Of a stretch of 17,062 bases of DNA, positions 1-16,559 are shown piece after piece (position 1 is the stretch's first letter; the number at the start of each line of letters is the position of its first letter). Source of the stretch: a virus; the UHGV virus genome UHGV-0205375; one strand, given 5' to 3'. The translations under genes and the position numbers were made by a program. Under the pieces are notes generated by a model. It worked only from the letters and a program-made list of their open reading frames with translations. It was not told the DNA's origin and searched no databases.

Positions 1-83
1 GTGACGCGGACATTATCCGGCGTAATGCCATTACGCATCCTGGCTTTGTGCCGGTGATCCCTCTGAAGGTGCCAGTGCAATGA
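1..83 (+). CDS. 3' end (27 codons) of an upstream tail-module gene, partial
   Basis: Open frame from the window edge to TGA at 81-83, which overlaps the next ATG (80-82) in an ATGA coupling arrangement. Too short to assign a family; by Mu-like gene order it could be the DNA-circulation protein. Confidence 0.3.
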   Translation, partial: DADIIRRNAITHPGFVPVIPLKVPVQ

Positions 84-1159
84 ACGACAATGTCACGCTA
101 CGGGTAAATGGCCGGGAGTGGAATGGCTGGACATCGGTGCGCATCGGTGCCGGTATTGAACGGCTGGCGCGGGATTTCAGTGTGGAGATCACCCGCCAGT
201 GGCCGGGAGATGAGGGTATTACCACGCTTCAGCCGCGCATTAAAAACGGTTCAAAAGTGGAAGTGCTGATTGGTGATGAGCTGGTGATTACCGGCTGGGT
301 GGAGGCGACTCCCGTTCGTTACGATGCCCGTTCGGTCAGCACCGGTATTGCCGGACGTAGTCTGACGGCTGACCTGATTGACTGTGCAGCCGAACCGACA
401 CAGTTTAACGGACGCTCGCTGGTGCAGATTGCGCAGGCGCTTGCTGCGCCTTTCGGCATTGAGGTGGTGAACAACGGTGCGCCGTCGGGTGTTATTCCTG
501 ATGTCCAGCCTGATCACGGTGAAACGGTGATTGAGGTAATCAACAAAATACTCGGTCAGCAGCAGGCACTGGCTTACGACGACCCGCACGGCAGGCTGGT
601 GATTGGCGGTATTGGCTCAACGCGGGCACATACTGCGCTGGTACTCGGGGAAAACATCCTTTCCTGCGATACGGAGAAGAGTATCCGGGAGCGGTTTTCT
701 GTTTACCAGGTGGCGGGGCAGCGTGCCGGAAACGACGATGATTTCGGTGAGGCCACCACCACCGCGCTGCGGGCCCGCACAGAGGACGCATTTATTGCCC
801 GTTACCGTCCGATGTATATCAGGCAGACAGGGCAGGCTACGGGGGCAGGCTGTATTGCCCGTGCGGACTTTGAAGCCCGACAACGGGCGGCGCGGACGGA
901 TGAAACCACCTATGTGGTGCAGGGCTGGCGACAGGGTAACGGTACGCTGTGGCAGCCCAACCAGCGGGTGATTGTCTTCGATCCGGTCTGTGGTTTCGAC
1001 AATACCGAACTGCTTGTCTCGGAAGTCACGTTTACTCAGGACCAGAACGGCACCCTGACGGAAATCCGTGTCGGCCCACCTGATGCTTATCTGCCTGAAC
1101 CCGAAGCCCCCGGCGCGCGGAAAAAGAAAAAAGCCAGAGTACAGGAGGACCCGTTCTGA
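80..1159 (+). CDS. Baseplate hub / tail protein, Mu gp44 (P)-like, phage GPD family
   Basis: 359-aa ORF with AGGAGG-type coupling to the next gene. First gene of a collinear Mu-like baseplate block (hub, V, gp46, J, gp48, fibre). Assignment rests on synteny and recalled similarity. Confidence 0.75.
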   Translation: MNDNVTLRVNGREWNGWTSVRIGAGIERLARDFSVEITRQWPGDEGITTLQPRIKNGSKVEVLIGDELVITGWVEATPVRYDARSVSTGIAGRSLTADLIDCAAEPTQFNGRSLVQIAQALAAPFGIEVVNNGAPSGVIPDVQPDHGETVIEVINKILGQQQALAYDDPHGRLVIGGIGSTRAHTALVLGENILSCDTEKSIRERFSVYQVAGQRAGNDDDFGEATTTALRARTEDAFIARYRPMYIRQTGQATGAGCIARADFEARQRAARTDETTYVVQGWRQGNGTLWQPNQRVIVFDPVCGFDNTELLVSEVTFTQDQNGTLTEIRVGPPDAYLPEPEAPGARKKKKARVQEDPF

Positions 1160-1707
1160 TGAAGGCGATTGAAGCCATGCAGCGACAACTCCTCGGCCTG
1201 ATTGGGCGGGCAGTGGTGAAAAGCATCAGTGCCACCACGAAATGTCAGACCGTGGATGTGTCCCTGATTGCCGGTGAACCCAAAGCCGGGATTGAACATC
1301 TTGAACCCTACGGTTTTACCGCAAGGGCAAACAGCGGTGCGGAAGCGGTGGTGTTGTTTCCGGATGGCGACCGTTCTCATGCGGTGGTTGTTACGGTGTC
1401 GGACCGGCGCTACCGCCTGAAAGGGCTGCAGACGGGTGAGGTGGCTGTCTATGACGATCAGGGGCAGTCCGTGACGCTGACCCGGGAGGGGATCGTGGTG
1501 GACGGTGCAGGTAAAACGATCACGTTTCGCAATGCGCCCAGAGCACGTTTTGAAATGGACCTGGAAGTGACCGGACAGGTGAAAGACCTGTGCGACTCCG
1601 GCGGTACCACCATGTCAGCGATGCGGCTTGCCTATAACGGGCATCGTCACAGAGAGAACGGTCAGGGCAGTAACACCGACAAACCGGATAAAGCGATGGA
1701 GGCATGA
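1159..1707 (+). CDS. Baseplate assembly protein V-like (Mu gp45-like spike)
   Basis: 182-aa ORF; its ATG at 1159 overlaps the upstream TGA (1157-1159), with AGGAGG at 1144-1149. Position and size fit a baseplate V/spike protein. Confidence 0.75.
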   Translation: MKAIEAMQRQLLGLIGRAVVKSISATTKCQTVDVSLIAGEPKAGIEHLEPYGFTARANSGAEAVVLFPDGDRSHAVVVTVSDRRYRLKGLQTGEVAVYDDQGQSVTLTREGIVVDGAGKTITFRNAPRARFEMDLEVTGQVKDLCDSGGTTMSAMRLAYNGHRHRENGQGSNTDKPDKAMEA

Positions 1708-2132
1708 TGGAACTGTGGCTGACGGTGAACGGTAAACGCACCTGCGCCAGTGCACCGCTGGATCCGCTGACCCGCGCCGTGGTGATTTCCCTGTTTACCT
1801 GGCGGCGGGCGGAGCCTGATGACAACGCCGACGTCCCGATGGGATGGTGGGGGGATACCTGGCCTGCGGTACAGAATGACCGTTACGGCTCCCGACTGTG
1901 GCTGCTTCAGCGCAGCAAACTGACCAATCAGCTGGTGCAGACGGTAAGGGGATATATCCGCGAATGCCTGCAATGGATGATTGATGACGGCGTGGTGTCC
2001 CGTATTGATCTGGATATCCGCCGCACCGGGATTAATGAGCTGGGTAACAGTATCACCCTCTGGCGTCGTGACGGACCGGTAATGATTTCTTTTGATGATC
2101 TGTGGAGTGCGATAACGCATGGCGGACAGTGA
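1704..2132 (+). CDS. GP46-family baseplate protein (Mu gp46 / P2 W-like)
   Basis: 142-aa ORF; ATGA overlap with the upstream stop at 1704-1707. Position is between the V and J genes. Confidence 0.7.
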   Translation: MMELWLTVNGKRTCASAPLDPLTRAVVISLFTWRRAEPDDNADVPMGWWGDTWPAVQNDRYGSRLWLLQRSKLTNQLVQTVRGYIRECLQWMIDDGVVSRIDLDIRRTGINELGNSITLWRRDGPVMISFDDLWSAITHGGQ

Positions 2133-3177
2133 ATTTCAGCGCCCGACGCTGGCAGAAAATATCAGTATGCTCCGTAACGATTTATTCGCCAGGCTGGACG
2201 TCAGCGACACGCTCCGGCGCATGGATGAAGACGTGCGGGCAAAGGTGTATGCGGCGGCGCTGCATACGGTTTACGGTTACATCGATTATCTGGCAATGAA
2301 CATGCTGCCTGACCTGTGCGATGAGTCCTGGCTGGCGCGACATGCTGCGATGAAACAGTGTCCGCGCAAGGGGGCCACGGCTGCCAGCGGGTATATGCGC
2401 TGGGAAGGTGTCAGCGATGGCCTGAAGGTGACCGCCGGGAGTGTTATTCAGCGCGATGACCTGGTTCAGTACACGGCAACTGCCGATGCAACCAGCTCCG
2501 GTGGTGTCCTGCGCGTGCCGATCGCCTGCTCAAATGCAGGCGCGGTCGGTAACGCTGACGACGGTACGGCATTAATCCTGGTCACGCCGGTGAATGGTCT
2601 GCCGTCTTCCGGTGTGGCTGACACCCTGACAGGCGGATTTGATACTGAAGAGCTGGAAACGTGGCGCGCCCGCGTCATTGAGCGGTATTACTGGACGCCG
2701 CAGGGCGGGGCTGACGGGGACTATGTCGTCTGGGCTAAAGAAGTGCCCGGCATTACCCGCGCATGGACATACCGTCACTGGATGGGAACGGGAACTGTCG
2801 GTGTGATGATTGCCAGCAGTGACCTGATTAATCCCATTCCGGAAGAATCAACGGAAACGGCGGCAAGACAACATATCGAACCACTGGCCCCGGTGGCAGG
2901 CTCTGATTTGTATGTGTTCAGGCCGGTGGCACATACGGTGGATTTTCATATCCGCGTGACGCCGGACACACCGGAAATACGGGCTGCCATCACCGCGGAG
3001 TTGCGTTCGTTCCTGCTGCGTGATGGTTATCCGCAGGGAGAACTGAAGGTATCGCGTATCAGTGAGGCGATTTCCGGTGCGAACGGGGAATACAGCCATC
3101 AGTTGCTTGCACCGGCAGACAATATCTCCATTGCGAAAAACGAACTGGCGGTACTGGGGACGATTTCATGGACGTGA
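2119..3177 (+). CDS. Baseplate J-like protein (Mu gp47-like)
   Basis: 352-aa ORF overlapping its neighbours by a few codons. Size and position are typical of baseplate J. Confidence 0.8.
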
Positions 3178-3752
3178 CAAACGATGATTACATCCGTCTG
3201 TTGTCGGCACTGTTGCCCCCCGGTCCGGCGTGGTCAGCCGGCGATCCGGCGATTGCCGGTGCGGCACCGTCATTAACCCGCGTTCATCAGCGTGCGGATG
3301 CCCTGATGCGGGAGCTTGATCCGCGCACCACCACCGAGCTGATAAATCGCTGGGAGCGTCTGTGTGGCCTGCCGGATGAATGTATTCCCGCAGGGACACA
3401 GACCCTTCGCCAGCGTCAGCAACGGCTGGATGCGAAGGTTAACCTGACGGGTGGCATCAACGAGGATTTTTATCTTGCACAGCTTGCTGCCCTGGGCAGA
3501 CCAGACGCCACCATCACGCGATACGACAAAAGCACGTTCACCTGCTCATCGGCCTGTACTGACGCGGTGAATGCGCCGGAATGGCGGTATTACTGGCAGG
3601 TCAACATGCCAGCCGCCACCAACACCACCTGGATGACATGTGGCGATCCCTGTGATTCCGCGCTGCGCTTCTGGGGGGACACCGTTGTCGAGTGTGTTCT
3701 TAACAAACTCTGCCCGTCGCATACCTATGTGATTTTTAAATATCCGGAGTAA
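3168..3752 (+). CDS. Tail protein, DUF2313 family (Mu gp48 / YmfQ-like)
   Basis: 194-aa ORF immediately upstream of the tail fibre gene, overlapping the J gene stop. Confidence 0.7.
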
Positions 3753-3755
3753 TCC

Positions 3756-4421
3756 ATGCATCGTATAGACACGAAAACCGCGCAGAAGGATAAGTTCGGC
3801 GCGGGTAAGAACGGTTTTACCCGTGGTAACCCCCAGACCGGCACGCCTGCCACCGATCTGGATGATGACTACTTTGACATGTTGCAGGAGGAGCTTTGCA
3901 GCGTTGTGGAGGCATCCGGTGCCAGCCTGGAGAAGGGGCGGCATGACCAGCTGCTTACCGCGCTTCGTGCGCTGCTGTTAAGCCGCAAGAATCCGTTTGG
4001 TGATATCAAATCGGATGGCACGGTGAAAACGGCTCTCGAAAACCTTGGTTTGGGAGAAGCGGCAAAACTTGGCGCTGCTGTAGGGGTAACGGGTAATACC
4101 GGGAGAATATTGATCCCGGCTTTAATTGGTGGGGTTGAACAAAATATCATTTTCCAGTGGGTCTCTGGATTTCTTTCCGATTCGACTGGAGTAGCAACCG
4201 TGACATTACCTATGGCATTTCCTAACGCTCTGTTTCATGCCACTGCGATTGACTCAGGTGCTTCTGCTAGCTCGTGGAATGGATCGGCCGGCACAACGTG
4301 GGGCTTCGATATTGGTGGCTCTACCAGAACGACAGTCAAAGTTCGTGTTTTAAGAACAACTAATGGGACTTCATGGGCGGGTGCTTCAGCTGCCGGTTGT
4401 TTATTCGCAATAGGTTATTAA
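3756..4421 (+). CDS. Tail fibre protein; constant N-terminal part (Sc) fused to the currently expressed variable C-terminal part (Sv)
   Basis: 221-aa ORF with GGAG 7 nt upstream. N-terminus [40 protein letters not shown] is the conserved e14/Mu-type fibre N-terminus. The inversion crossover site lies inside this gene at 4033-4058. Confidence 0.8.
4033..4058. repeat. Left recombination site of the invertible segment (hix/gix-like, 26 bp, core TT at 4045-4046)
   Basis: CTCTCGAAAACC TT GGTTTGGGAGAA; its reverse complement TTCTCCCAAACC AA GGTTTTCGAGAG resembles the hix/gix sites as recalled. A 24-bp perfect inverted repeat (4045-4068) pairs with 5625-5648. Confidence 0.65.
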
Positions 4422-4422
4422 C

Positions 4423-4839
4423 ATGAAAACAAGATACTTTTATGACGCCGTTGATAACGGATTTTATATTGAACCTGAAAGCAGGTTTATTCCTGAATCA
4501 GCTATTGAAATCAGTGTTAACCTCTACAACCAATTTGCTGGTATTGCCTGGCCTGAAGGTAAAATGCTTGGTGCAGATAGCACTGGACTGCCCGCATGGG
4601 TCGATGCGCCGCCTCCAACGCATGAAGAGCAAATAGCGGCGGCAGAACAATATCGCCAGCAACGGCTACAGCAGATTGACGAAGTAACCGCCGACTGGCG
4701 GGTTGAATTAATGCTCGGCGATATAAGTGACGAGGATAAAGCGAAATTGTCTGAGTGGATGGCGCATAAAAAAGCGGTGAAAGCCGTCGATACGTCAACG
4801 GCCCCTAATGTCATCTGGCCTGAACAGCCGGAGGCGTAG
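4423..4839 (+). CDS. Tail fibre assembly protein (Tfa family)
   Basis: 138-aa ORF directly after the fibre gene. The motif LPAWVDAPPPTHEEQIAAAE is shared with the opposite-strand paralogue (LPAWADIPPPTHEELIEITE). Confidence 0.8.
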   Translation: MKTRYFYDAVDNGFYIEPESRFIPESAIEISVNLYNQFAGIAWPEGKMLGADSTGLPAWVDAPPPTHEEQIAAAEQYRQQRLQQIDEVTADWRVELMLGDISDEDKAKLSEWMAHKKAVKAVDTSTAPNVIWPEQPEA

Positions 4840-5254
4840 GCCATTCAATATCTGGCGCACCGGAAGTATCAACCAGTTCCAGTGCGTCCAGATAATCCAG
4901 CCACAAATTATATTGCGCCAGTTCGTCACCTTTCAGACGACCAATAGCGGCTTTACCGGGCCATTGTTTACTGTTCATGTATTCGTTGGCCTGGTTAATT
5001 AGTAACTGTCTTTCTGATTCAGTAATTTCAATAAGCTCTTCATGCGTGGGTGGAGGAATATCAGCCCACGCAGGCAGCGCATCATCTCCGGCAATACGGA
5101 CTTTTCCTTGTGGCGGTTCAGCCATAAACTCACTGACAATATTTTGATTCACTTCTTTCACATCTGATAAATCCCATCCCTCTGATTTATATTTATCAAT
5201 CATATCCACAGGGAAAAAAGCATTATGTCTGGCACTATAAACATATTTGTTCAT
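4811..5254 (-). CDS. Alternative tail fibre assembly protein (Tfa'), in the inverted orientation
   Basis: Start moved to the internal ATG at 5252-5254 (MNKYVYSARH...), preceded by an AGGGTG SD-like sequence; 147 aa. Carries the Tfa motif and overlaps the 3' end of tfa by 29 bp, as in e14 and Mu G segments. Confidence 0.75.
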   Translation of the reverse strand: MNKYVYSARHNAFFPVDMIDKYKSEGWDLSDVKEVNQNIVSEFMAEPPQGKVRIAGDDALPAWADIPPPTHEELIEITESERQLLINQANEYMNSKQWPGKAAIGRLKGDELAQYNLWLDYLDALELVDTSGAPDIEWPTPPAVQAR

Positions 5255-5274
5255 ATAAATCACCCTGAATAAAA

Positions 5275-5643
5275 TTACTCGCCAACAGCCCACCAACAGT
5301 AATTCATGGTAACAGTTGGACTTGTCGAGGTTGTTCTAAAGGCAGAATAAAACCCTGTTAACCCTGTCTCTTCAGTTGTCATCATAAAACCACGACCACT
5401 CCCGGCAGTTGAACCACCATCACCAGAATGTGAAAGCAAGGCAATATCAGCTTTTTTAGGGAAAGGTATATTAAATTCTACCCGTAGTGTCTGACTCGCA
5501 AGCGTAGGAGACACACGCCCACGACCATATTGCAGGATTTTCCCGTTGGGTAATTTCATCCATCCATCACCACTGGCAAAAGAGGCCATGTCCGGTATCT
5601 GATTTTCCCCTGTCCCCACATCCCGTTTTGCCGCTTCTCCCAA
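5275..5643 (-). CDS. Alternative tail fibre variable C-terminal cassette (Sv'), promoterless until inversion
   Basis: 122-aa open frame whose 5' end (GEAAK...) begins inside the right crossover site and mirrors the ...LGLGEAAK junction of the expressed fibre gene. Inversion would fuse it to the constant part of 3756-4421. Confidence 0.65.
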   Translation of the reverse strand: MGEAAKRDVGTGENQIPDMASFASGDGWMKLPNGKILQYGRGRVSPTLASQTLRVEFNIPFPKKADIALLSHSGDGGSTAGSGRGFMMTTEETGLTGFYSAFRTTSTSPTVTMNYCWWAVGE

Positions 5644-5660
5644 ACCAACCTTTCAAATAT
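5635..5660. repeat. Right recombination site of the invertible segment (core AA at 5647-5648)
   Basis: TTCTCCCAAACC AA CCTTTCAAATAT. The inner half-site plus core is identical to the reverse complement of the left site; it lies 60 bp upstream of the invertase start. Confidence 0.65.
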
Positions 5661-5719
5661 TTTTCTGAATCAGGTGATATTTCGCCTCTTCTCCTGTTTT
5701 TACAACAGGAGAAGCACTC

Positions 5720-6283
5720 ATGATTTACGGGTATGTTCGTGTATCAACAAATCATCAGGATACAGAGTTGCAACGTCTTGCACTTGAGTCAGCTGGCTGT
5801 GAGCGAATTTATGAAGAATATGCCAGTGGCAGAACAGCTAATCGCCCTGTGTTAAAGGAATTAATTACGGTGATGAAAAGTGGAGATGAGTTGATTGTCT
5901 GGAAGTTAGATCGGATAGGGAGAAATGTGCTGCATGCGCTATTGATGTTTCAAAATCTGCACGAAAAAGGTGTTAATTTTCGGAGTATTACAGATGGCGT
6001 AGACCTGAAAACAGCAAGTGGTCGCTATAATTTCCGTAATATTCTTTCTGCTGCGCAGTATGAATCTGATTTGAATAGCGAGCGAACTTTAGCTGGTTTG
6101 GCTATTGCCAGATCCAAAGGCCGGATTGGTGGGCGTAGACCGAAGTTTAGCGACGAGCAGTGGCAACAGATGGGAGCGCTCATAGCGGCAGGGAAATCAC
6201 GGCGTTATGTTGCACGTATCTATAACGTTGGGCTATCAACCCTATATAAACGATTTCCTGTTACTGGCATTCAAACGAAATAA
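5720..6283 (+). CDS. pin: Serine DNA invertase, Pin/Gin/Hin family
   Basis: 187 aa with AGGAG 8 nt upstream. N-terminal YGYVRVSTNHQ (catalytic Ser), WKLDRIGRN, GRIGGRRPKF and a C-terminal HTH (VGLSTLYKRF) follow the Gin/Pin pattern, and the gene abuts the invertible segment. Confidence 0.9.
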   Translation: MIYGYVRVSTNHQDTELQRLALESAGCERIYEEYASGRTANRPVLKELITVMKSGDELIVWKLDRIGRNVLHALLMFQNLHEKGVNFRSITDGVDLKTASGRYNFRNILSAAQYESDLNSERTLAGLAIARSKGRIGGRRPKFSDEQWQQMGALIAAGKSRRYVARIYNVGLSTLYKRFPVTGIQTK

Positions 6284-6587
6284 TTTAAAAGCAATTTAAA
6301 GAGTTATTTGTCTAATGTTGGAAGCCGCAGCCACGTCGTATGCAAGAACGTGCTGCGGCTGGCTGGCGAACTTTCGATAGTGCGAGTATTGAATGATTTC
6401 CAACTGTTATCGATTTTGCGTATTTTTTGCATGAGAGGATTTTTACCTCCTCCCGCCGATCCTCCATGGCTTTACGCCTGTGTCTCTGGTCTGCTCTGTG
6501 CCAGAAGCGGACATAGCAGGTGCCAGATGCATTTGTTATTCTTCATTGAATTGAGCAGTATCCTTAACAGGAACTCTGAATACATAA

Positions 6588-7226
6588 ATGAAGATGAAAA
6601 ACATGTCTGAAGTGTTGACCCAAGAAAAGCTTATTTTTGTTGCCCAGAGACTAAAGGCCCTCGCGCAGTCAGGCCTGACCTATTCAAAAGACGTCTTTGA
6701 CAAGGAACGCTATGAAGCCTTGCGTGAAATTGCCGCTGGACTGCTGAGTTCGCAGTTTGATATTAGCCGCAATGATTTGTTTCATGTATCGGAAACGGGT
6801 TACGCGACGCCCAAAACAGATGTGCGTGCGTTTATCCTGCGTAATAATCGTATTCTGATGGTGAAAGAGGCTGCAGATGGATTATGGAGTCTTCCTGGCG
6901 GATGGGCAGATGTTGGAGATACACCTTCTGAAGCTGTGCGTCGAGAGGTCGAAGAAGAAACCGGATTAAAAGTCAGAGTGACTAAACTATTGGGAGTTTG
7001 GGATCGTAATCTTCACGGCCATCCGCCTTTACCCTGGCATGTTTACAAGCTGATTTTTCTCTGTGAAGAAGTAGGTGGCAGCCTGTCAATCAGCCATGAG
7101 TCACTCGATGCTGATTTTTTTGATGTCAACGACCTGCCTGAATTGTCGCTTTCAAGAATTGTGCCTGAGCAGATTGCTGTCAGCCTGAGAGTAGCGAAAG
7201 GTGATGAAAAAACATGGTTTGATTAA
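6588..7226 (+). CDS. NUDIX hydrolase with an N-terminal helical domain
   Basis: 212-aa ORF with a Nudix box GGWADVGDTPSEAVRREVEEETGL (G-x5-E-x7-REVxEExGL). The start is ambiguous among ATGs at 6588, 6594 and 6603; substrate unknown. Confidence 0.75.
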   Translation: MKMKNMSEVLTQEKLIFVAQRLKALAQSGLTYSKDVFDKERYEALREIAAGLLSSQFDISRNDLFHVSETGYATPKTDVRAFILRNNRILMVKEAADGLWSLPGGWADVGDTPSEAVRREVEEETGLKVRVTKLLGVWDRNLHGHPPLPWHVYKLIFLCEEVGGSLSISHESLDADFFDVNDLPELSLSRIVPEQIAVSLRVAKGDEKTWFD

Positions 7227-7255
7227 CTTTCTTCTGCAACCATTAAGGAATGGCA

Positions 7256-7894
7256 ATGATATTCAACGCTAAGGGTTTTTTATTCGATATGGACGGTACG
7301 CTGGTTGATTCAACAGCCGTAGTGGAAAGCGTCTGGAGAGATTTTTGTGCAGAATACGGTCTTGATTCTCAGGCTGTGATTGCTTACGCACACGGGCGGC
7401 AAACGATTGATACACTAACGCATTTTATTGGTGCAGGTGAGAAAACCAATAAAATCGCGGCCTCACTCGAAGAGGTTGAAATCAACACGACAGAAGGCGT
7501 TACTGAAGTAAAAGGGGCCGCTGCACTCTTATCAAAACTGCCACCGGATAGCTGGGCACTTGTCACTTCTGCAGGCAGAATGCTTGCCGAAAACAGGATG
7601 AAAGCGGCTAATCTCCCCTTACCCAGAGTAATGGTGTGTGCAGAAGATGTAATGACGGGAAAACCAAGTCCCGAGGGTTACATCAAAGCAGCTTTGGCTT
7701 TGGGCCTTGAGCCTGGTGAATGCGTGGTATTTGAGGATGCATCTGCGGGTATAAAAGCAGGGCTGGCAAGTGGAGCTTCGGTAATAGCTGTTCAGCCTGA
7801 CGCTCTGGGAGCATCTGAAGCCCATGCCGTCAGCGAACTGTCTGACATTATGGTCAAGATTTCCGGAGAACGTTTCAATATCATCTGTGGTTAA
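7256..7894 (+). CDS. HAD-IA family phosphatase (beta-phosphoglucomutase-like sugar-phosphatase fold)
   Basis: HAD motif I FDMDGTLVDS at the N-terminus and an acidic motif (VVFEDASAG) near the C-terminus. Start placed at the second ATG (7256) because AAGGA at 7244-7248 is then 7 nt upstream; the ORF track starts at 7250. It lies 23-29 bp after the NUDIX gene, so probably co-transcribed. Confidence 0.8.
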   Translation: MIFNAKGFLFDMDGTLVDSTAVVESVWRDFCAEYGLDSQAVIAYAHGRQTIDTLTHFIGAGEKTNKIAASLEEVEINTTEGVTEVKGAAALLSKLPPDSWALVTSAGRMLAENRMKAANLPLPRVMVCAEDVMTGKPSPEGYIKAALALGLEPGECVVFEDASAGIKAGLASGASVIAVQPDALGASEAHAVSELSDIMVKISGERFNIICG

Positions 7895-8226
7895 TCACGT
7901 TACACAATACGCATCAATGGACGCTGAGTAGTTCGCGAGTTTTAAACTTCCAACGTCCGCTTTTCGCTCATAACAGACATAAACTTCAGTTATGGCATAA
8001 AGGTATGCATGCTGGGTGGGGAAAGTATGAAGGAAAAGAAGACTGCTGCGCCGTTTGTCGTCACGTTTATCTTCATTGGCTATGCAAGTCGTAATACAAG
8101 GTGGGACAAAACTGAGACACATAAGGCCTCGCAATGGCTTGCAAGGCTTTACATGTTTTGATGTGGTGGGACGTGTGAGCGCAGTGTTGATGGGGTAATG
8201 CTTTGAATTAGAAGCGGATTCTTATA

Positions 8227-8273
8227 ATTCGTAATGCGAAGGTCGTAGGTTCGACTCCTATTATCGGCACCAT
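8227..8273 (+). tRNA. Partial tRNA-Thr(CGU) gene: 3' 47 nt only (anticodon loop through CCA); attachment-site core, not a functional tRNA
   Basis: ATTCGTAATGCGAAGGTCGTAGGTTCGACTCCTATTATCGGCACCA contains the anticodon CGT, T-arm GGTTCGACTCC and acceptor 3' end with CCA, matching the 3' part of enterobacterial thrW as recalled. The upstream 80 bp has no D-arm or 5' acceptor half. It sits 13 bp from the 3' end of the integrase gene. Confidence 0.7.
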
Positions 8274-8286
8274 TTAAATCAATAAG

Positions 8287-9450
8287 TTACACATCATTAG
8301 TACCTTCCTTATTTTTTGACTGGGACAAATTTGGGACCGATGGGTTCAGGATCGAGTCTATTTGCCGTGCGTGTTCGGTAAGGTGATTAGGTGCAAGGTG
8401 AGCATATCGACGAACCATTTCGATAGACTCCCAGCCTCCCATTTCCTGTAACACTGACAACGGGACTCCGGCTTGAACCAGCCAACTTGCCCAGGTGTGT
8501 CTCAAGTCGTGAAATCTGAAATCATCAATACCAGCCCGTCTCAGCGCCGCTTTCCAGGCTGTGTTTGCGTCATACCGCATCTTCCTGACTGTTGGCGCTT
8601 TCGTTCCGTCTGGTTTGGTACAGCTTTCCTTGTACACAAATACCCAACGGTGATGATTCCCGATTTGTTTTTTCAATACGCGACATGCAGTATCATTCAG
8701 CGCAACGCCAATTGCGCGGTTTGATTTACTCTCTTCCGGGTTTATCCATGCCACCCGGCGCTGCATATCTATTTGTTGCCATTCAAGGTTGATGATGTTC
8801 GAGCGTCTTAGGCCTGTTGCCAGTGCAAATTCAACAACAGACTTTAATGGCTCCGGACATTCATCAATCAGCCTTTGTGCTTCATGGGGCTCCAGCCAGC
8901 GGATCCGTTTATTCTTTGGTTGGGGCACTTTAATAATTGGTGCCTTATCCAGCATTTTCCATTCACGCTCTGCGGCTCTTAGTAGGGCCTTTATAAATGA
9001 AAGATGCGTAGCCTTCGTTGCAACGGACGCTGGTTTTGGCGTGTATTCTGGAACAGGTTTCCCTTTTTTTCTGCATGCTTCTGCCCTGAGTTTCCAGTTT
9101 TCCTCATGACGCCGGTTCGTCATTTTCTGCATTGCTGAATAAATTTTTGATTCAGTAATGTCTCTTAGTTGCATTCCTGCGAAATGTTGAAGCCAGAATC
9201 CGATCCGGCTTTTGTCATCGTCCAGTGATTTTTTATGTGCTTTCTCTTCAAGCCACCTGACACACGCTTCCTCGAACGTTATATCAGGTATTTCACCAAG
9301 TTTGCTGACCCGCCATGCTTCAGCCTTTAGCTTGTCATGGAGTTCTGTCGCCTGCCTTTTGTCCTTTGTTCCAAGAGACTGTTTAAATCTTTTACCGTTC
9401 GGCAATGTGAAACTGGCGTACCATATTTCACCTCTGCGGAAGAGTGACAT
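8287..9450 (-). CDS. int: Tyrosine integrase, lambdoid/P22-like
   Basis: 387 aa with C-terminal catalytic region [16 protein letters not shown]...MVRRYAHL (H-x-x-R and Tyr). The 3' end abuts the tRNA-Thr fragment; P22-type integrases are known to use thrW. Confidence 0.9.
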
Positions 9451-9677
9451 TTTCTTTCCTCTGTTATGCCATCACCCGCGCTCACCTGGACAGTATGCAG
9501 CGGAGACTGAAGAGCCGCAATGCAGGCTTGTCGTGTTGTGAGGTAAGGAGATTTATTCTTAGTGGGATCTTTGCGTGTTGCCTGAAGACGCCCTGTGCGT
9601 ATCCAGTTAATGGCAGTCGGTCTGGATATCTTGAGAAAATGACAGGCCTCATCGAGTGTGAGGCTGTATGGCTCCAT
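9327..9677 (-). CDS. xis: Excisionase (Xis), P22-like
   Basis: Start taken at the internal Met ([29 protein letters not shown]...), giving 116 aa with an HTH-like N-terminus. Overlaps the 5' end of int and is coupled by a 1-nt overlap to the upstream gene. Confidence 0.6.
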
Positions 9678-9982
9678 TATTTCACCTCTTGCTGTGACAT
9701 TGTTGAAAAATGGATACCAGCTCGTTGCTGCCAGACGATCCAACCGAGAGTCATATCCCATGCCATGTATTCGTTATCGCCGTTTTTTGCTCTCCGACGA
9801 TCTACTAAGTCACCGAAACGCTTTTCCATGAATAATTCATAAGCTTCGCGTTCATCTGGTTCTACTTCCAGAGATAGGAGTGCGATTTCATAAGCACGGC
9901 GCTCAATATCGTCTCGCACGTCAAGGCTGCTGATACGCTCTTTAATTTCTTTAATCAGTTCTTTGTCGGTAAAAGTGGTCAT
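9677..9982 (-). CDS. Hypothetical early protein, YfdT-like by size and synteny (101 aa)
   Basis: Acidic 101-aa ORF with stop/start overlaps to both neighbours. Last gene of a five-gene run whose sizes (120/274/178/120/101 aa) match the CPS-53 yfdP-yfdT block as recalled. Confidence 0.5.
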   Translation of the reverse strand: MTTFTDKELIKEIKERISSLDVRDDIERRAYEIALLSLEVEPDEREAYELFMEKRFGDLVDRRRAKNGDNEYMAWDMTLGWIVWQQRAGIHFSTMSQQEVK

Positions 9983-10344
9983 TATGCTCCAGCCTCCGGT
10001 GCTTTTGGCATTACTGCCCAGTGAGTGATATTGACGTTTTCAAGGTCCCCGACCTGAAATGTCCACTGCCATTCTCCGGTTTCTTTTTGTCCCCAGGTGT
10101 ACCAGAGAGAACGCCAGCCAATTAGCCAGCCTTCTCCGTTAGCATCGAATAACAAAACACTTTCATTTGCTGGTGGCAGTTCAGTTGACACTGGTATTAC
10201 TTTGTTTTCCTGTGCTGCACATTTAGCTTCAAGCGCATCGAATTTACGCACTAGGTATTCAGCATCTGTTTCATTTACTTTCAGATCTCGCGGTACACAT
10301 CTCCCACGAAGAAACCCTTCCATTTCGAAAACATTCATGCGCAT
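9982..10344 (-). CDS. Hypothetical early protein, YfdS-like by size and synteny (120 aa)
   Basis: 120-aa ORF overlapping the upstream HD-domain gene by 10 nt. Confidence 0.5.
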   Translation of the reverse strand: MRMNVFEMEGFLRGRCVPRDLKVNETDAEYLVRKFDALEAKCAAQENKVIPVSTELPPANESVLLFDANGEGWLIGWRSLWYTWGQKETGEWQWTFQVGDLENVNITHWAVMPKAPEAGA

Positions 10345-10871
10345 TTGCGTAACTCCGATAACTCGTTAAAGCGTTCCATAAACATCCCGTAGGCATGGCC
10401 CGGAGCCAGTGGAATCACGTTGAACATCTCTGTTGCCGGGATACCTTCCAGTACAGGCCAGAAAGAGCCATCATCAAGCCCGAGATCGCGGCGTTCGGTT
10501 GCCAGCATGATGAGATCGGCATATTTCACGGGCGTACTCATAACTGGGGGTAACCCGTATTTCTCACGGATTACGGCGTCTATTTTTTCTTCCATTTGTT
10601 TATAGTCAGGAAGAAGGCGTTTCAGTGGTGCGGGAATGTCCTGGCAATACGCTTCTGTTGCATCATGCATTAACGCTTCAAAAGCAAATTCCTGCGGCAC
10701 CAGCTGGCTGCAAAGAACCGCATGTTGGGCGACGCTGTAGAAGTGCGAAAGATGACCGGCAAAGCGACAGATATTTGAAAGGGAAACCGCGATATCGTTA
10801 ATATCGATGTCGTCTTTATTTATCCTGTCATAATAAAAATGCTTCCCGGAAAAAGTTTTAATAAATGACAT
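10335..10871 (-). CDS. yfdR: HD-domain phosphohydrolase (YfdR-like 5'-deoxynucleotidase family)
   Basis: Start taken at the internal Met (MSFIKTFSGKHFYYD...), giving 178 aa. HD-domain residues are visible (VAQHAV... ALMHDATEAY). Confidence 0.7.
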   Translation of the reverse strand: MSFIKTFSGKHFYYDRINKDDIDINDIAVSLSNICRFAGHLSHFYSVAQHAVLCSQLVPQEFAFEALMHDATEAYCQDIPAPLKRLLPDYKQMEEKIDAVIREKYGLPPVMSTPVKYADLIMLATERRDLGLDDGSFWPVLEGIPATEMFNVIPLAPGHAYGMFMERFNELSELRKCA

Positions 10872-10998
10872 TTTGTTCTCCACGTATATGCGCTGCACCG
10901 CGCTGAATTCTGGTAAAAAGAATCCCTCACCATCCGGCGATTATTGAGTAAATTACGTTTCCATAAATGCCCCCGCAGGGGCATTTGCAGTAATGAAA

Positions 10999-11823
10999 TC
11001 AGGCGGTGAAAGTACCAATAAAGGTTTCTACTTTGCTGTCCTTGAATTTCTCAACAAGCAGATCACGAAATTCGTTAGCCATTTCTTCCTGCACCGCCTC
11101 CAGCTGAATAATGCGTAGAACCAGTACAGGACGATCGCCAGTGATAATACTGAGGCGTAATTTAAACGGACGTTCTTTCAGACCTTCAAACGGAACGCAT
11201 TTAAATTCAAATGCCACTGGCATAATGTCTTTGGTCTTCGCTTCGACAGACTCCATCAGGGAGCGTTTGCCGCTGAAGTCATTATCTTCAAAATCAGCGG
11301 TCTGGTTTGCTTCAATCGTGATTTTACGGACAGCCGCAGCCGCTTTTGTTGCCTGAATAGCGTCACCATTAGCATCAAAGCCCACAAGATAGTCGGCCCA
11401 GTCTTCAATCCATTCTGCCAGTGACTTCTGGGAGTTACGCTCGCCGTTAACAGACAACAGAGCAGAGAACGGTGCTGTCTTTTTCAGTTTGAGTGTGGCG
11501 GTGTTATCTGCGTGGCCTGGTTCATCAATAGTACCTAGGTTAAGCACACTGACGGCACGCATATTATCAGCATCGATAAAGCAGCGGGTGCCTTCATCTG
11601 CAAGATCTTTAGAATAACGGGTAAAGTCATCGATGCTGGCAGTGGAAAGCGCACCACGGAAACGGAAGCGATTTAAATTAAATTTTTCCAGATCATGAAT
11701 GCGGAAATTCTCAGGCAATGCCACAGCATCGGCACCAATCTTACTGATAATTTCATTAACACCCTGAGCAGAAATAAGGGCATGGATTTGATTAATTGCG
11801 GTTGCGTCTAAGTTCTGAGACAT
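10999..11823 (-). CDS. yfdQ: DUF2303-type phage protein (YfdQ-like)
   Basis: 274-aa ORF directly upstream of the HD-domain gene; the name is assigned from recalled size (274 aa) and position upstream of yfdR, not from a motif. Confidence 0.6.
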
Positions 11824-11888
11824 AATAAGTCCTCACTATATAAAGATATTCAGTGATGAGATAAATAATCAGTTAATTAAAAACGATA

Positions 11889-12251
11889 TTAACGACCTGC
11901 TGCGCGGAGTTTTCCGTCAGGTTCACCGGCAAGAGTCAGTAACTGTCCCTGGTCTTCCTGCAGAATAGTCAGGCGACCACCGCGATTGACATACATCGGC
12001 GTTTCGGTGGTGTCTTCTTCGGAAATTTTCCCGCGGTTAGTCGGGCGAACATATGAGAGTTTGTGTTTGATTTTCACTCGGTTCTCATCAAACGGTTCGA
12101 TTTCCAGGTTGAGCGAGACCTTACCTTTGGTTTTCGTGTTCATCACACCGGAAGCGACTTCACTGAGAACTGCGCCGAATTTGGTTTCAAATACGCCGCC
12201 GTCCAGCTCCCCGATAAATGCCTGCACATCAGTACTGCGTTCGCTAGCCAT
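11889..12251 (-). CDS. Hypothetical early protein, YfdP-like by size and synteny (120 aa)
   Basis: Start at MASERSTDVQAF... (ATG at 12249-12251). The longer 226-aa track ORF extends through GC-rich structured non-coding sequence with an Arg-rich nonsense translation. Confidence 0.55.
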   Translation of the reverse strand: MASERSTDVQAFIGELDGGVFETKFGAVLSEVASGVMNTKTKGKVSLNLEIEPFDENRVKIKHKLSYVRPTNRGKISEEDTTETPMYVNRGGRLTILQEDQGQLLTLAGEPDGKLRAAGR

Positions 12252-12387
12252 TTTGCTGCTCCTCATCATATCGACCCTGCAAGGTCGGTTAGTTTCTCCA
12301 CAAAACAGAGAAGAACACCTGCGGTGACTGCCGCCCGGATGGATTGGGTTATGAGCCCGTCGTCCGGTGATGCTCTTCTCTGTTTTG

Positions 12388-12433
12388 TAAAAAGGACGGT
12401 ACCAGCCGGAAGCAAGGGTACAAGCTGGTACCG
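12388..12433 (-). terminator. Putative intrinsic terminator for leftward (minus-strand) transcription
   Basis: 10-bp perfect GC-rich inverted repeat CGGTACCAGC (12397-12406) / GCTGGTACCG (12424-12433) with a 17-nt loop. On the minus strand it is followed by TCCTTTTTAC. The large loop makes it weaker than a canonical terminator. Confidence 0.35.
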
Positions 12434-12719
12434 CCAAGACTACACACAGCATAAAGTTGTGGTGCCGGGTGCCTCCCGGTGCCTGGCGAAGGTTGCACAC
12501 CAGGCGGGTGGGTATCCACAGAAGGTCGACTGTCAGCCTCAACCTTAACCCGCGTGCGCTGAGCCGCATTCACCACAACGCTAAGGATTCTCTCTGGTTG
12601 AAAATACTTAGCTGTTATGTGCCTGCTTTTAGCCACATCAGGCGAGGTGGACCTAGTTATTCCCCAACAACAAGGATTCGGTTAATCTGGTTATCCCCAA
12701 CAACGCAAAAGGAAAAGAA

Positions 12720-13154
12720 ATGTCCGGTAATATCTATACGCTGTACAAATCCCACTGTGAAAATGTTGGAAAGTATCGGGGCATTGAAATCAGTGGGGTA
12801 GTGTCATCAGTCGAAATAAGCAAAGTTGAATCAAGGGCAACATTACTTACTCTTTTGGACCTTGTCTTACATGAGCACCGGAAGAAATTCGGCACTCCCT
12901 ATAATCAGTTGAATGGGAAAAAGGCTCTGGTTCACCTTATTCTGATGAAGCATCACTGGATGCCAAAACAGATTAATGAGATGAAATTTGATGAACTTCT
13001 TCTTTCAATTCAGGATGAACTCACACTTGATAAAATAAGCGTAACCGCCCAGAAATTTTTAGATTATCGAGACTGGAGATCACAAATTCATCACTTTGAT
13101 GATTTTGACGAAAATGAATGGGATCCTAATTTGTCTGCACAATATCTAAAGTAA
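12720..13154 (+). CDS. Hypothetical protein (144 aa), orphan gene oriented against the leftward early operon
   Basis: ATG at 12720 with AAGGA 6 nt upstream. Preceded by two direct repeats GTTAT(T)CCCCAACAAC (12656-12671, 12690-12704). The 3' end overlaps the convergent 68-aa gene by 29 bp. No recognisable family. Confidence 0.55.
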   Translation: MSGNIYTLYKSHCENVGKYRGIEISGVVSSVEISKVESRATLLTLLDLVLHEHRKKFGTPYNQLNGKKALVHLILMKHHWMPKQINEMKFDELLLSIQDELTLDKISVTAQKFLDYRDWRSQIHHFDDFDENEWDPNLSAQYLK

Positions 13155-13332
13155 CATCCTGTGATAAAACCGTGATTTCCTGATCCAGTTTTTTTAAGGA
13201 GTCTATTGTTTCCTGTCGATAAGACAGCACTTCACGAAGCTGGTTTATAGCTGCCAGCTTCTTTGTCATCCACTCATAAATTTCCTCATCTGTGTAGCCA
13301 GGCGCGACGATTTTGGGTTCTGTTTTGTGCAT
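13126..13332 (-). CDS. Hypothetical protein (68 aa), first gene downstream of the putative pL
   Basis: Start taken at the ATG at 13330-13332, preceded by GAGGAGA 7 nt upstream; the track's TTG start at 13347 lies inside that RBS. No Arg-rich N-terminus, so not obviously an N-type antiterminator. Confidence 0.5.
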   Translation of the reverse strand: MHKTEPKIVAPGYTDEEIYEWMTKKLAAINQLREVLSYRQETIDSLKKLDQEITVLSQDVTLDIVQTN

Positions 13333-13496
13333 TTCACATCTCCTCAAGTTATCAGTTACTTGTTGATGGGGACCAGATTGTTAAAGAGCTAAGCGTCCTG
13401 TAGGGCGCTTTTTTGTTGCTAACGAATCATCCTGGACTTCATATGCCCCAGGCGGCTACTTCGTGGGCGTCCTGCCTGTTCGTTGTCGGTAAAATG

Positions 13497-13538
13497 ATAT
13501 TGCTACTTAAAGTTGCAAAAATCAACTACAAAAAGTAG
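13497..13538 (-). promoter_or_regulatory. Putative OL/pL: two 13-bp operator sites (CTAC-N5-GTAG type) interleaved with -35 TTGATT and -10 CAATAT on the minus strand
   Basis: Minus-strand reading is CTACTTTTTGTAG - TTGATT - 17-bp spacer containing CAACTTTAAGTAG - CAATAT. Same architecture and 23-bp operator spacing as the OR/pR region at 15303-15344. Confidence 0.5.
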
Positions 13539-13844
13539 AAGTTAAGGGCATAAAAACGCATTTTGAAATTAATTCATTGAATTTACAGGTAAAATATTTT
13601 GGGGGCTATGATCAAAAAATTATATTGTGAAGTTAGCTGAGTTGTAGAACGTGATGGATTGTTTCATTGTGGCTGAGATCAGTATGTGATCTAGTTAATC
13701 ATCAAGTGGGGAGAAGTCAATCATGAGAGTATTGTTGAGTTTTTGGAGACTAAGTGTAAAACGGTAGGGAATTTACTACTCAATGGATTGTGTGATTTAG
13801 CCTCGATAGTAAGAAAACTAGGGCAGGTCATAGTCAAAAACTTA

Positions 13845-14129
13845 TCAAAACATAAATTTGGCGAGACCTAAAATCGCCAAGCCTGTTGCAACAGTCCATG
13901 CGATCTGTTTATTTACGGCTGATGAAATAGCGCTGTTGACTTCACTTAGGCTAGGTTTTTTTGACAACTTTTCATCTATATCTATTTGTTTTTGAAGGAT
14001 AACAGCGACATCGCGTCGGGTGTCGGAGAGAGCGTTTCGCAAATCACGAATGTCAGCTCTCATCTCTGCGAGATTTGTTTTTATATCCTCAACATTCGCT
14101 TCTAACTTAGCGACTCGGGCTTCAAGCAT
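13845..14129 (-). CDS. Small coiled-coil protein with C-terminal transmembrane anchor (XhlA-like architecture)
   Basis: Start taken at the ATG at 14127-14129, preceded by GGAGGTG 6 nt upstream; 94 aa. MLEARVAKLEANVEDIKTNLAEMRADIRDLRNALSDTRRDV is coiled-coil-like and the C-terminus IAWTVATGLAILGLAKFMF is hydrophobic. The track's longer ORF would overlap the upstream gene by 56 nt. Confidence 0.55.
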   Translation of the reverse strand: MLEARVAKLEANVEDIKTNLAEMRADIRDLRNALSDTRRDVAVILQKQIDIDEKLSKKPSLSEVNSAISSAVNKQIAWTVATGLAILGLAKFMF

Positions 14130-14196
14130 GTCATCACCTCCGCCATCTCCACCGTGTCTTCTAATTGTGGGAAGTTCACTATTAAATGGTACTACA

Positions 14197-14544
14197 TTAT
14201 TTTGCGGCGTCGGCATTTTTTTCATCTTCCGTTTTTGCTGGGAACTTTTCATTTACCCAGTTCAAAACTGAAAACGCATTTATATGAATTTCATTTCCAC
14301 AATTGTTGCATATTAGTGAAAAGTAATACTGGTTAGCAGTATCAGAATAAATGCTTTTTTCAGTAAAAACATTCACATAACTACCAAGTTTCATAGTACA
14401 TGGCATGCCCACATTCGCGCTGACTTGAGGCACAGTCAATCTGTCGTGTCCACATAGTGTACATTTTAGATATATATTCTTTTCTGAGAAATAAGAGACC
14501 AACATATCCATGTTAATCTTTTCGAATCCCTGCTCACTAGCCAT
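14197..14544 (-). CDS. Zinc-ribbon-type protein (115 aa), unknown function
   Basis: Two CxxC pairs (CTLCGH and CNNCGN) about 50 residues apart. Starts 15 bp downstream of the cI stop on the same strand, so probably co-transcribed with the repressor. Confidence 0.55.
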   Translation of the reverse strand: MASEQGFEKINMDMLVSYFSEKNIYLKCTLCGHDRLTVPQVSANVGMPCTMKLGSYVNVFTEKSIYSDTANQYYFSLICNNCGNEIHINAFSVLNWVNEKFPAKTEDEKNADAAK

Positions 14545-14559
14545 TATATGCCCTTAGAA

Positions 14560-15300
14560 CTATAACCGATTGTATTTTATTGACTCATGAATCAACGCCT
14601 TGCCCATTACATAAAGCTGATCCTGCGATTTTTCATCGATGTACCATTTCTCATAGGCAGGGTTATCCGAAAGAACGGCTAGCTTGTCACCTTGCATTTG
14701 AAGACGTTTAACATGAAAAGTCTTACCGTAAACGAAAGAGTAAATTCCATCAGTCTGGAAGTGACGAACAGAAATGTCGACAAACAGTCGATCTCCGGAA
14801 ACGAGAGTAGGGGACATACTATCGCCATTTACAGTCATAACCTTAATATCATCCTGAGAACGGTTACCGAAAAGAGAACGGGCATGTTCTGTTGTGAACT
14901 CAATGGCGTAGAGCACATCAACATAGTCTGAAAGCATATAGGTTCCAGGTCCTGCGCTAACGCTAAGATCTAAAACTTCTATCCTGTATACGTCGGGTTT
15001 AGTTGGATTGGGGATGCTTGCCATTTCCTTACATCCTTCTCTCTCGCCAACACCATATTCTAAATATGAAGCCGATACCCCCAGAGCCAACGCAAGTTTA
15101 TTCATGACAGAGGCACGAGGCTTCGCTGCGCCGATTGTGTATCGCCGCGCCATTTCATATGTAACGCCAACAAGACTTTTGAGTTGGGTGACAGAAATTC
15201 CCTTGTTTGTCATTAACTCGTTTAGTCTCTTGGCGAAATCTGGATACTTCTGTTCTTCTACCATAGGTAGAAGATTACTCACATCACATACGCTCGTCAT
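14560..15300 (-). CDS. cI: CI-type prophage repressor (HTH plus LexA/S24 peptidase domain)
   Basis: HTH region ISVTQLKSLVGVTYEMARRY and an S24 autoprotease domain with GDSMSPTL (Ser) and HVKRL (Lys). The track start at 15321 would place the operators inside the CDS; start set to the ATG at 15298-15300 (possible leaderless mRNA), with the ATG at 15262-15264 as an alternative. Confidence 0.85.
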   Translation of the reverse strand: MTSVCDVSNLLPMVEEQKYPDFAKRLNELMTNKGISVTQLKSLVGVTYEMARRYTIGAAKPRASVMNKLALALGVSASYLEYGVGEREGCKEMASIPNPTKPDVYRIEVLDLSVSAGPGTYMLSDYVDVLYAIEFTTEHARSLFGNRSQDDIKVMTVNGDSMSPTLVSGDRLFVDISVRHFQTDGIYSFVYGKTFHVKRLQMQGDKLAVLSDNPAYEKWYIDEKSQDQLYVMGKALIHESIKYNRL

Positions 15301-15302
15301 TT

Positions 15303-15344
15303 CTATTTTAAGTAGTTGCAATTCGCTACTTTAAGTAGCATTAT
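15303..15344. promoter_or_regulatory. Putative OR with divergent promoters: operators CTATTTTAAGTAG (15303-15315) and CTACTTTAAGTAG (15326-15338); pR -35 TTGCAA (15316-15321) and -10 CATTAT (15339-15344)
   Basis: Two near-palindromic 13-bp sites spaced 23 bp centre to centre between divergent cI and cro. The pR spacer is 17 bp, and the cro AGGAG RBS follows at 15361-15365. Confidence 0.55.
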
Positions 15345-15371
15345 CCCCTCTGGATTTCAGAGGAGAAAGAT

Positions 15372-15635
15372 ATGTCATCTCAAAACTACACCGAGAAAGC
15401 AGTAAAGGCTGCGGGAAAGTCTTTATCTGAAGTAGCTCGTCGCTTTGGTTTTAAATCTACTCAATCTGTCGCTAATTGGGTAATTAACAATCAAGTCCCG
15501 TCGGAACGAGTTTTACAACTTTGTGAGCTGGGGAACTGGTCCGTAACCCCCCATGAGCTGCGTCCTGATATTTATCCAAATCCAAATGATGGATTACCAG
15601 AGTGCTATTCAAAAGTTAGCGGTTCAGTTGCGTAA
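15372..15635 (+). CDS. Cro-like HTH regulator (YdaS-like)
   Basis: 87 aa, divergent from cI, AGGAG 6 nt upstream. The segment STQSVANWVINNQVPSERVLQLCELGNWSVTPHELRPDIY resembles YdaS/Cro-type proteins as recalled. Confidence 0.7.
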   Translation: MSSQNYTEKAVKAAGKSLSEVARRFGFKSTQSVANWVINNQVPSERVLQLCELGNWSVTPHELRPDIYPNPNDGLPECYSKVSGSVA

Positions 15636-15663
15636 ACGTAACCACAGAAACGAGGAGTTAACC

Positions 15664-16550: not shown

Positions 16551-16559
16551 AGGTCGGTC

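Follow-up and report, generated by a model that had tools for sequence, protein, structure and literature searches.

Introduction

The temperate phage SfI has been described as a mosaic in which SfV/e14-like morphogenesis genes are combined with an int/xis module shared with P22-like phages, and its homology to e14 was noted in the same work (PMC3636060). The attP of SfI is located between the conversion genes and int and has been verified by PCR on the phage; its 46-base core, common to attP, attL and attR, is stated to be identical in SfII, SfV, SfX and P22 (PMC3636060). The same 46-bp site was found at the two ends of the SfIV prophage (PMC3851460), and both the SfI and the SfIV GenBank genomes were made by circularising the prophage sequence at the att core (PMC3636060, PMC3851460). 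Between its tail fibre and attP, SfIV carries an IS element and gtrABC. The cryptic prophage e14 of E. coli K-12 uses a different integrase and integrates at the icd site.

To this group of phages we compared a stretch of viral DNA of 17,062 nt from the virus genome UHGV-0205375 (the whole stretch is called the window in the following), in which a piece of a tRNA-Thr gene lies between phage genes.

Results and Discussion

Positions 8227-8272 on the plus strand read ATTCGTAATGCGAAGGTCGTAGGTTCGACTCCTATTATCGGCACCA and are an exact copy, with 0 mismatches, of the last 46 nt of tRNA-Thr (thrW), including the CCA. This string occurs a single time in the window and 0 times in 200 shuffles, even if 3 mismatches are allowed. 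As a reference for the empty site (attB) we used E. coli DETEC-P169 with the order proA, tRNA-Thr, LysR remnant and paoD, where the string corresponds to positions 31-76 of the 76-nt tRNA-Thr adjoining proA. Identity with this empty site runs 14 nt beyond the CCA to 8286, resulting in a 60-nt match at 100%, but left of 8227 the two sequences are unrelated, and base 8226 is A in the window and C in thrW. A complete cloverleaf with an anticodon is not present, as the window holds tRNA positions 31-76 only; ARAGORN found 0 tRNA genes over the whole window and the Rfam scan of the window gave no tRNA match at E<=1. The initial annotation had described a 47-nt 3' fragment without a complete tRNA, had regarded it as an att core derived from thrW, and had placed it between phage genes on both sides with a P22-like int to its right and e14/Mu-like phage DNA to its left. 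Our data agree with all of this except for the length, which is 46 nt. The features around the fragment are:

8102-8226, plus strand: P arm of a P22-type attP, with SfIV/P22 homology, candidate arm sites and a hairpin
8102 and 8167 (TGGGAC) and 8113 (TGAGAC), plus strand: candidate arm-type Int sites of the P arm, from a motif scan
8227-8272, plus strand: attP core, the exact 3' 46 nt of thrW, equal to the published SfI/SfII/SfV/SfX/P22 core
8273-8290, plus strand: extension of the attP/attB identity past the tRNA end (DETEC-P169 match), overlapping the int stop codon at 8287-8289
8291-8340, plus strand: P' arm, overlapping the int 3' end, with tandem TGGGAC at 8321 and 8332
8287-9450, minus strand: tyrosine integrase of the P22/SfV type (Pfam Phage_integrase, 3.2e-48)
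9327-9761, minus strand: excisionase Xis (PHROG 2907, 1.3e-50; Pfam HTH_17)

The sequence parts that are characteristic of a P22/SfV-type attP could be found here. The core is identical to the host thrW 3' end in 46 of 46 positions and agrees letter for letter with the published 46-base SfI core, and the positions aligned to it in the GenBank records of SfII and P22 are annotated as attP. The cognate P22-family integrase adjoins the site, with int located at a distance of 15 nt from the CCA; its product shares 100% identity with the Int of SfIV and 90% with that of P22, and xis is placed as in both phages, although the true start of Xis probably lies inside the ORF 9327-9761. On both sides of the core there are phage arms with repeated sites which are homologous to known arms: the P22 attP region aligns to 8102-8448, thus including both arms, with 80.7% identity, and the P arm 8102-8226 is common to SfIV, P22 and DLP12-type attR ends, with related P-arm sequence being present also at an icd-type attR. 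A damaged or mis-assembled tRNA gene can be dismissed, because the break at 8227 falls exactly on the published core boundary and the sequence upstream of it is the conserved P arm.

The spacer between the stop codons of the HAD gene (7250-7894, plus strand) and of int (8287-9450, minus strand) covers 7895-8286 and is a four-part mosaic made of 7895-7978, 7951-8101, 8102-8226 and 8227-8272. Of the five copies of TGGGAC in the 17-kb window four flank the core, all on the plus strand (8102, 8167, 8321 and 8332), and these are kept in P22, SfIV and a DLP12-type attR. The pair in the P' arm forms a direct repeat with a distance of 11 bp that is kept in P22 and SfIV. By analogy to lambda, the TGGGAC repeats would represent arm-type Int sites. 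An IHF-consensus match, AATCAATAAGTTA, abuts the core at 8277-8289; it is the sole one within 7900-8500 among five in the window, and P22 has a match at the aligned position, which suggests that IHF may bind at this candidate site. Positions 8114-8155 can form a hairpin, after which a short T run follows on the minus strand. The hairpin is kept in P22, in SfIV and at DLP12-type and e14-type ends, and lambda contains a counterpart of it. From its place across the core from int one might speculate that the hairpin acts on int transcripts, either as a terminator or as a sib-like element. With one compensatory pair in six sequences, its covariation is too weak for classing the hairpin as a structured RNA.

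We searched about 50,000 phage records with the window. The best matches were SfIV, SfV, SfII and SfI, and they are collinear across the whole window. Against SfIV, window 1-4067 is 97.9% identical to the baseplate genes, 8102-13486 is 99.2% identical to the attP arm, int and early genes, with the homology restarting exactly at 8102, and 15639-17048 is 95.5% identical to the region from cro to replication. All three segments occur in the same order and orientation in one 39.8-kb genome, and likewise SfIV, SfV, SfII and SfI each hold the left and the right module together in one genome of 37-41 kb. Beyond xis, the right side contains yfdT/S/R/Q/P-type early genes, an S24-type repressor, a cII-like regulator and the start of the replication region. 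A Rfam match to "mir-5880" in the replication region was rejected as a real RNA, as the sequence is a run of short repeats; these repeats are probably ori iterons.

The left side is composed of the following features:

80-3752, plus strand: Mu-like baseplate genes gp44/P, gp45, gp46, gp47/J and gp48 of an SfV-like myovirus (Pfam)
3756-6283, both orientations: invertible tail-fibre region and invertase (Pfam Gp53-like_C, Caudo_TAP, Resolvase and HTH_7)
3756-4421: tail fibre, gp53-like
4423-4839: tfa
4811-5296, minus strand: tfa', opposed to tfa
5275-5643, minus strand: alternative fibre C-terminus
4040-4068 and 5625-5653: inverted repeats of 29 nt, 93% complementary
5720-6283: Gin/Pin-type invertase (Pfam Resolvase and HTH_7)
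6588-7894, plus strand: cargo (moron) cassette NUDIX and HAD, occupying the slot of gtrABC in SfV/P22
6588-7226, plus strand: NUDIX hydrolase (Pfam NUDIX/Nudix_N)
7250-7894, plus strand: HAD-family phosphatase (Pfam HAD_2)
7895-7978, plus strand: 3' tail of the NUDIX-HAD cassette, 96.4% identical downstream of HAD
7951-8101, plus strand: conserved, non-coding-looking segment left of attP, found in many lambdoid phages
8027-8161, plus strand: 44-codon ORF, starting in the conserved left segment and ending in the P arm

The baseplate genes correspond to orf15-19 of SfIV and are 97.5% identical to those of the prophage in E. coli TW14425 described below. Core chromosome as the source of the left-hand genes can be dismissed, as they are phage baseplate and fibre genes. 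Together with the collinearity described above, the Pfam set gp44-48 shows the combination that is typical for SfV-like myoviruses, namely a Mu-like baseplate and a lambdoid early region with attP-int in between. The same layout with a different int is found in the isolated E. coli phage SKA5. Judged by these comparisons, the "e14/Mu-like" left side and the "P22-like int" on the right side are the two ends of one known mosaic phage type.

We therefore propose with considerable confidence that the tRNA-Thr fragment is the attP core of just one temperate phage, which belongs to the SfV/SfIV/e14 type and is seen in its unintegrated gene order. A 3' fragment of a tRNA with phage DNA on both sides is by definition what an attP looks like, and thus no second element is needed. 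The proposed phage would combine a lambdoid early region and a P22-type int-xis-att module with a Mu-like contractile tail, and the order of the window (baseplate, invertible fibres, invertase, NUDIX and HAD, P arm, 46-nt core, int, xis, early genes, cI/cro, replication) would be that of a virion genome, an excised circle or a concatemer. Following the lambda/P22 paradigm, the catalytic domain of Int would bind the core and its N-terminal domain the TGGGAC arm sites on both sides, IHF would bend the DNA, and Int would carry out strand exchange between the core and its identical 46-nt counterpart at the 3' end of thrW in the chromosome. Integration would then split the window at the core: the int side would become attL, restoring a complete thrW beside proA, and the side with cargo and P arm would become attR, bearing the tRNA fragment. 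We infer protein binding and strand exchange, as well as the role of the hairpin.

With a single phage as the source of the attP, the window should be found split at the core in normal lysogens, and this is what we observed in bacterial chromosomes. In loci with the early genes of the window the match begins precisely at 8227, and on the other side of this point lie a complete thrW and proA. Among the chromosomes, E. coli TW14425 matched the right half best, with 100% coverage; here one prophage lies between two copies of the core that are 43.5 kb apart. At its attL the order is proA, a complete tRNA-Thr and int, with window 8227-17051 being present at 99.75% identity, and its attR matches window 8101-8275, thus P arm and core, at 98.9%. 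Inside the attR end follow cargo, a Pin-type invertase, invertible fibres and the Mu-like baseplate, the latter matching window 1-4067 within the same 43.5-kb prophage. Excision of a TW14425-like prophage by Int/Xis would join its two ends in the way seen in the window. The second-closest match to the right half, GPEC617, also carries a single SfV-like prophage at thrW. In NMBU-W12E19 window 6333-8290 (NUDIX, HAD, spacer and core) is present at 99.2% as an attR and is followed by the chromosomal pao genes; this prophage carries a lambda-like tail. Recombination of the site with attB is thus indirectly supported by lysogens whose sequences are split at the core. The right half by itself does not prove an SfV-like structural module, because in strain 09-00049 the early region of the window is joined to lambda-like siphovirus structural genes.

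The cargo is the part in which the window deviates from its relatives. Serotype-converting phages carry gtrA-gtrB-gtr(type) or oac beside attP, but the corresponding slot of the window contains the invertase, NUDIX and HAD. As there are no gtr genes in the cargo slot, we see no sign of O-antigen conversion, and the phage should not be assumed to be serotype-converting, since NUDIX and HAD replace the O-antigen-modifying genes of its Shigella relatives. For HAD (7250-7894) a match to a sugar-phosphatase-like NCBIfam model was found below the cut-off. The 1.3-kb NUDIX-HAD cassette is present at 99% or more in P2-like, Rac-like and lambda-like prophages, and segment 7895-7978 accompanies it wherever it occurs (loci L005 and L017-L026). 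As the cassette moves between prophages of the P2-like, Rac-like, lambda-like and SfV-like types, it is a candidate for a host-fitness or anti-defence function. None of the complete E. coli genomes and phage records shows exactly this pairing of NUDIX-HAD cargo and SfV-like tail genes, and a search of viral, genome and metagenome contigs with a gapped exact pattern from the end of HAD to the end of int gave no contig with the cargo-attP-int junction. Exact-protein look-ups with the 221-aa tail fibre, NUDIX, the invertase, a 115-aa early protein and the 50-aa call over the small ORF yielded no such contig either. A shorter pattern from the P arm to int was found in two IMG/VR contigs, which match the baseplate and the attP-int segment of the window but, like the Shigella phages, diverge from it in the cargo region. 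The NUDIX-HAD cassette in the slot of the conversion genes is the one mildly new point of this locus.

A gene order like that of the window would also result if the same or a near-identical SfV-like phage were integrated twice head to tail at thrW and the window spanned the internal attP. For lambda it is well known that double lysogens can carry two prophages in tandem with an attP between them, and among the complete genomes we found one possible case, E. coli ET201, in which a stretch of 40 kb has the gene of the portal protein WP_000466250.1 at either end and an intact attP and int mid-way. With this one case in 5,426 complete genomes such polylysogeny is rare, however, and the ET201 assembly is full of frameshifts and thus a possible artefact of reads from excised or replicating phage. 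No feature of the window demands a second phage copy, and we consider this origin unlikely.

The initial annotation had assigned the two sides of the fragment to different elements and had seen tandem integration at thrW as the simplest explanation, a view that our data do not support. Two different elements in tandem would make the fragment an internal hybrid junction, which we regard as slightly less likely still than a duplicated phage. In such an arrangement the left element would contribute the P arm and the right element the P' arm on the two sides of the core, and the intact thrW and the left integrase would be located further to the left. Arrays of this kind do exist at thrW in a few E. 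coli chromosomes, as in PSS-04, where the core fragment lies between an unrelated myovirus-like prophage and the int of a lambda-like prophage, and in EC21Z-144, where a lambda-like prophage is followed by a truncated int remnant and a defence island; an analogous junction is present at argU in about 80 genomes. The early region of the window can also be joined to structural genes of non-SfV type, as in 09-00049. In a tandem array, however, the flanks come from different elements, and here both flanks belong to one phage family, with SfIV, SfV, SfII and SfI carrying both modules in the same order and orientation, and to one prophage type, as the two chromosomal loci most similar to the right half (TW14425 and GPEC617) are single SfV-like prophages and the far end of the TW14425 prophage matches the P arm and baseplate of the window as well. 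Moreover, the P arm of the window is the type that accompanies this int, with 98-99% identity to SfIV and TW14425, but the arm found in the true heterologous array of PSS-04 reaches a similarity of only about 85%. The P-arm region is joined to int in just two of the 622 complete genomes that carry this region.

We also had a closer look at the segment to the left of the P arm, in which the initial annotation had seen weak evidence for a small membrane peptide encoded by a 44-codon ORF. The ORF is indeed present at 8027-8161 with the translation given there, and its first 25 codons are part of segment 7951-8101. This segment is conserved with 82-95% identity beside attP in lambda, e14-type and thrW-type phages, the identity being about 95% at other thrW attR ends, 88% at an e14-type attR that adjoins the icd fragment, and 82% in the comparison with lambda 27319-27464. 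If 8027-8161 or its first ~25 codons did encode a genuine small peptide of hydrophobic character that is expressed from the attR end, this would be in line with a start codon (ATG or GTG) and a GGGGAA motif that are kept in 9 of 9 aligned sequences (window and homologues), with six synonymous and four non-synonymous changes in the first 25 codons (start change aside and the error-prone ET201 assembly left out), with an open frame in the corresponding region of the lambda-type homologues, and with two phage records in which the automatic annotation calls a CDS at this position. In the lambda-type homologues, however, a 2-nt indel shifts the frame after about codon 17. Five of the eight homologues have GTG in place of ATG, codon 37 is a stop in two of eight, and over the ORF there are 8 synonymous and 14 non-synonymous distinct substitutions and one stop, which is not clearly different from the neutral expectation. 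The first 75 nt (8027-8101) are missing in SfIV, P22 and TW14425, where homology starts at 8101-8102, and the 3' part (8102-8161) overlies the arm sites and the hairpin. The hydrophobic run of 14 residues is short for a membrane helix, neither Pfam nor PHROG has a family for the product, and RefSeq has nothing annotated at this position in the genomes examined. A search against 5.8 billion proteins gave 45 clusters, all of them at least 73% identical, enterobacterial and 29-77 aa long. Given its poor conservation and its overlap with conserved P-arm sites, the ORF is probably not a gene, and we give the peptide little chance. Similarly improbable is that 7951-8101 encodes the start of an unannotated small hydrophobic peptide, (M/V)KEKK(T/S)A..F..T.IF..., which would be expressed from the attR end of lambdoid prophages including lambda, and that, separately, the window derives from a true thrW polylysogen.

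Conclusion

In summary, the feature is an ordinary, already known P22/SfV-type attP, and the result matters little beyond correct annotation: a tRNA fragment between phage DNA should be read first as an attP in vegetative gene order and not as two elements. The serotype-converting Shigella phages SfV, SfIV, SfII and SfI, which integrate at thrW, have the identical 46-nt core, a P arm with 98% identity from 8102 onwards and baseplate genes with 97-98% identity, and they share the order of tail fibres, cargo slot, attP, int, xis and early genes. The differences to these phages are found in the cargo slot, which in the SfV group contains gtrA-gtrB-gtr(type) and in the window the invertible fibre segment, the invertase and NUDIX and HAD, as well as in the immunity region, since 13487-15638 of the window differs from SfIV. 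The Salmonella phage P22 shows the same core, TGGGAC repeats, hairpin and IHF-like site as well as the order of cargo, attP, int and xis, with gtrABC left of attP, but P22 is a podovirus with unrelated structural genes and its arms have diverged by about 20%. The prophage e14 and the SfV-like prophages at thrW have the same structure, with a Mu-like baseplate, invertible fibre, Pin-type invertase and cargo at attR; e14 and the TW14425 and GPEC617 prophages are integrated, so that the whole prophage lies between their two ends and chromosomal DNA adjoins these. The tandem arrays in PSS-04 and EC21Z-144 at thrW and in APEC O18 at argU offer the same local picture of a tRNA 3' fragment that lies between phage DNA and adjoins int, but their two sides are demonstrably different prophages or remnants and int is often truncated, whereas in the window int is intact and both sides belong to one phage type.

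Tail-fibre and early regions

Most of the early region of the window resembles SfIV, a Shigella phage integrating at thrW, and this likeness is interrupted at the immunity genes. The features discussed here are the following.

Features of the window
3756-6283: invertible tail-fibre switch (inverted repeats and adjoining invertase)
6588-7978: NUDIX + HAD two-gene cassette
8114-8155 (minus-strand reading): hairpin of 17 bp with a short T run after it
12386-12609, minus strand: match to the sRNA family STnc100
13487-15638: immunity region, comprising the repressor, a pair of small genes and the cro side

The immunity region has no match in SfIV but shares 99.8% identity with further thrW prophages of E. 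coli; it is a swapped module in an otherwise SfIV-like early region. The homology to SfIV also stops at 4067, which is the end of the left arm of the 29-nt inverted repeats (4040-4068 and 5625-5653, 93% complementary) in the tail-fibre switch. These repeats enclose two opposed tail-fibre assembly genes together with an alternative fibre C-terminus, and the segment bounded by them is adjoined by an invertase of the Gin/Pin type.

Upstream of a yfdP-like gene in the early region, the STnc100 match covers the full length of the family with 43.4 bits (E=1e-6), slightly below the Rfam gathering score of 47. A second Rfam match, "mir-5880" at 16861-16935, was rejected as it is actually a run of short repeats resembling TCTGAC(C/G)C(G/A)TCAAAAT; lying in the replication region, these are probably replication-origin iterons.

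Related loci in E. coli

Among the compared chromosomal loci, strain ET201 (NZ_CP100994.1, 3584018-3624365) shows one SfV-like prophage in two head-to-tail copies, separated by an intact attP and with the same portal protein at either end. Many genes are frameshifted in this assembly, so the double prophage is a genuine polylysogen or else an artefact from excised phage reads. At argU of APEC O18 (NZ_CP006830.1, 4424707-4443042) a lambda-like prophage gives way to a phage arm and the core, beyond which lies the truncated integrase of a DLP12-like remnant; ompT is duplicated there. This arrangement recurs in about 80 other genomes and is a common tandem array among ExPEC-type strains.

In the single SfV-like thrW prophage of TW14425, the stretch from the invertase to attR (3290-9230 of locus L060) contains corA and ysgD between IS1 copies, together with a GIY-YIG protein and a regulator of the AraC family. 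The cargo slot of this prophage appears to have captured chromosomal genes.

Hairpin and cargo cassette

The hairpin at 8114-8155 lies on the opposite side of the att core from int and could act as an int terminator or sib-like element. It is kept in P22, SfIV and the DLP12-type and e14-type attR, with just one compensatory pair seen, and its counterpart in lambda is located near 27.47-27.50 kb.

The NUDIX + HAD cassette retains at least 99% identity across very different prophage settings: between tfa and sheath in a P2-like setting, after DUF977 in a Rac-like one, beside an integrase of the P4 type and, in a lambda-like prophage at thrW, at the attR end. With this distribution, it behaves as a hopping moron. 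In the window it occupies the slot which in SfV and P22 holds the O-antigen-modifying genes gtrABC instead.
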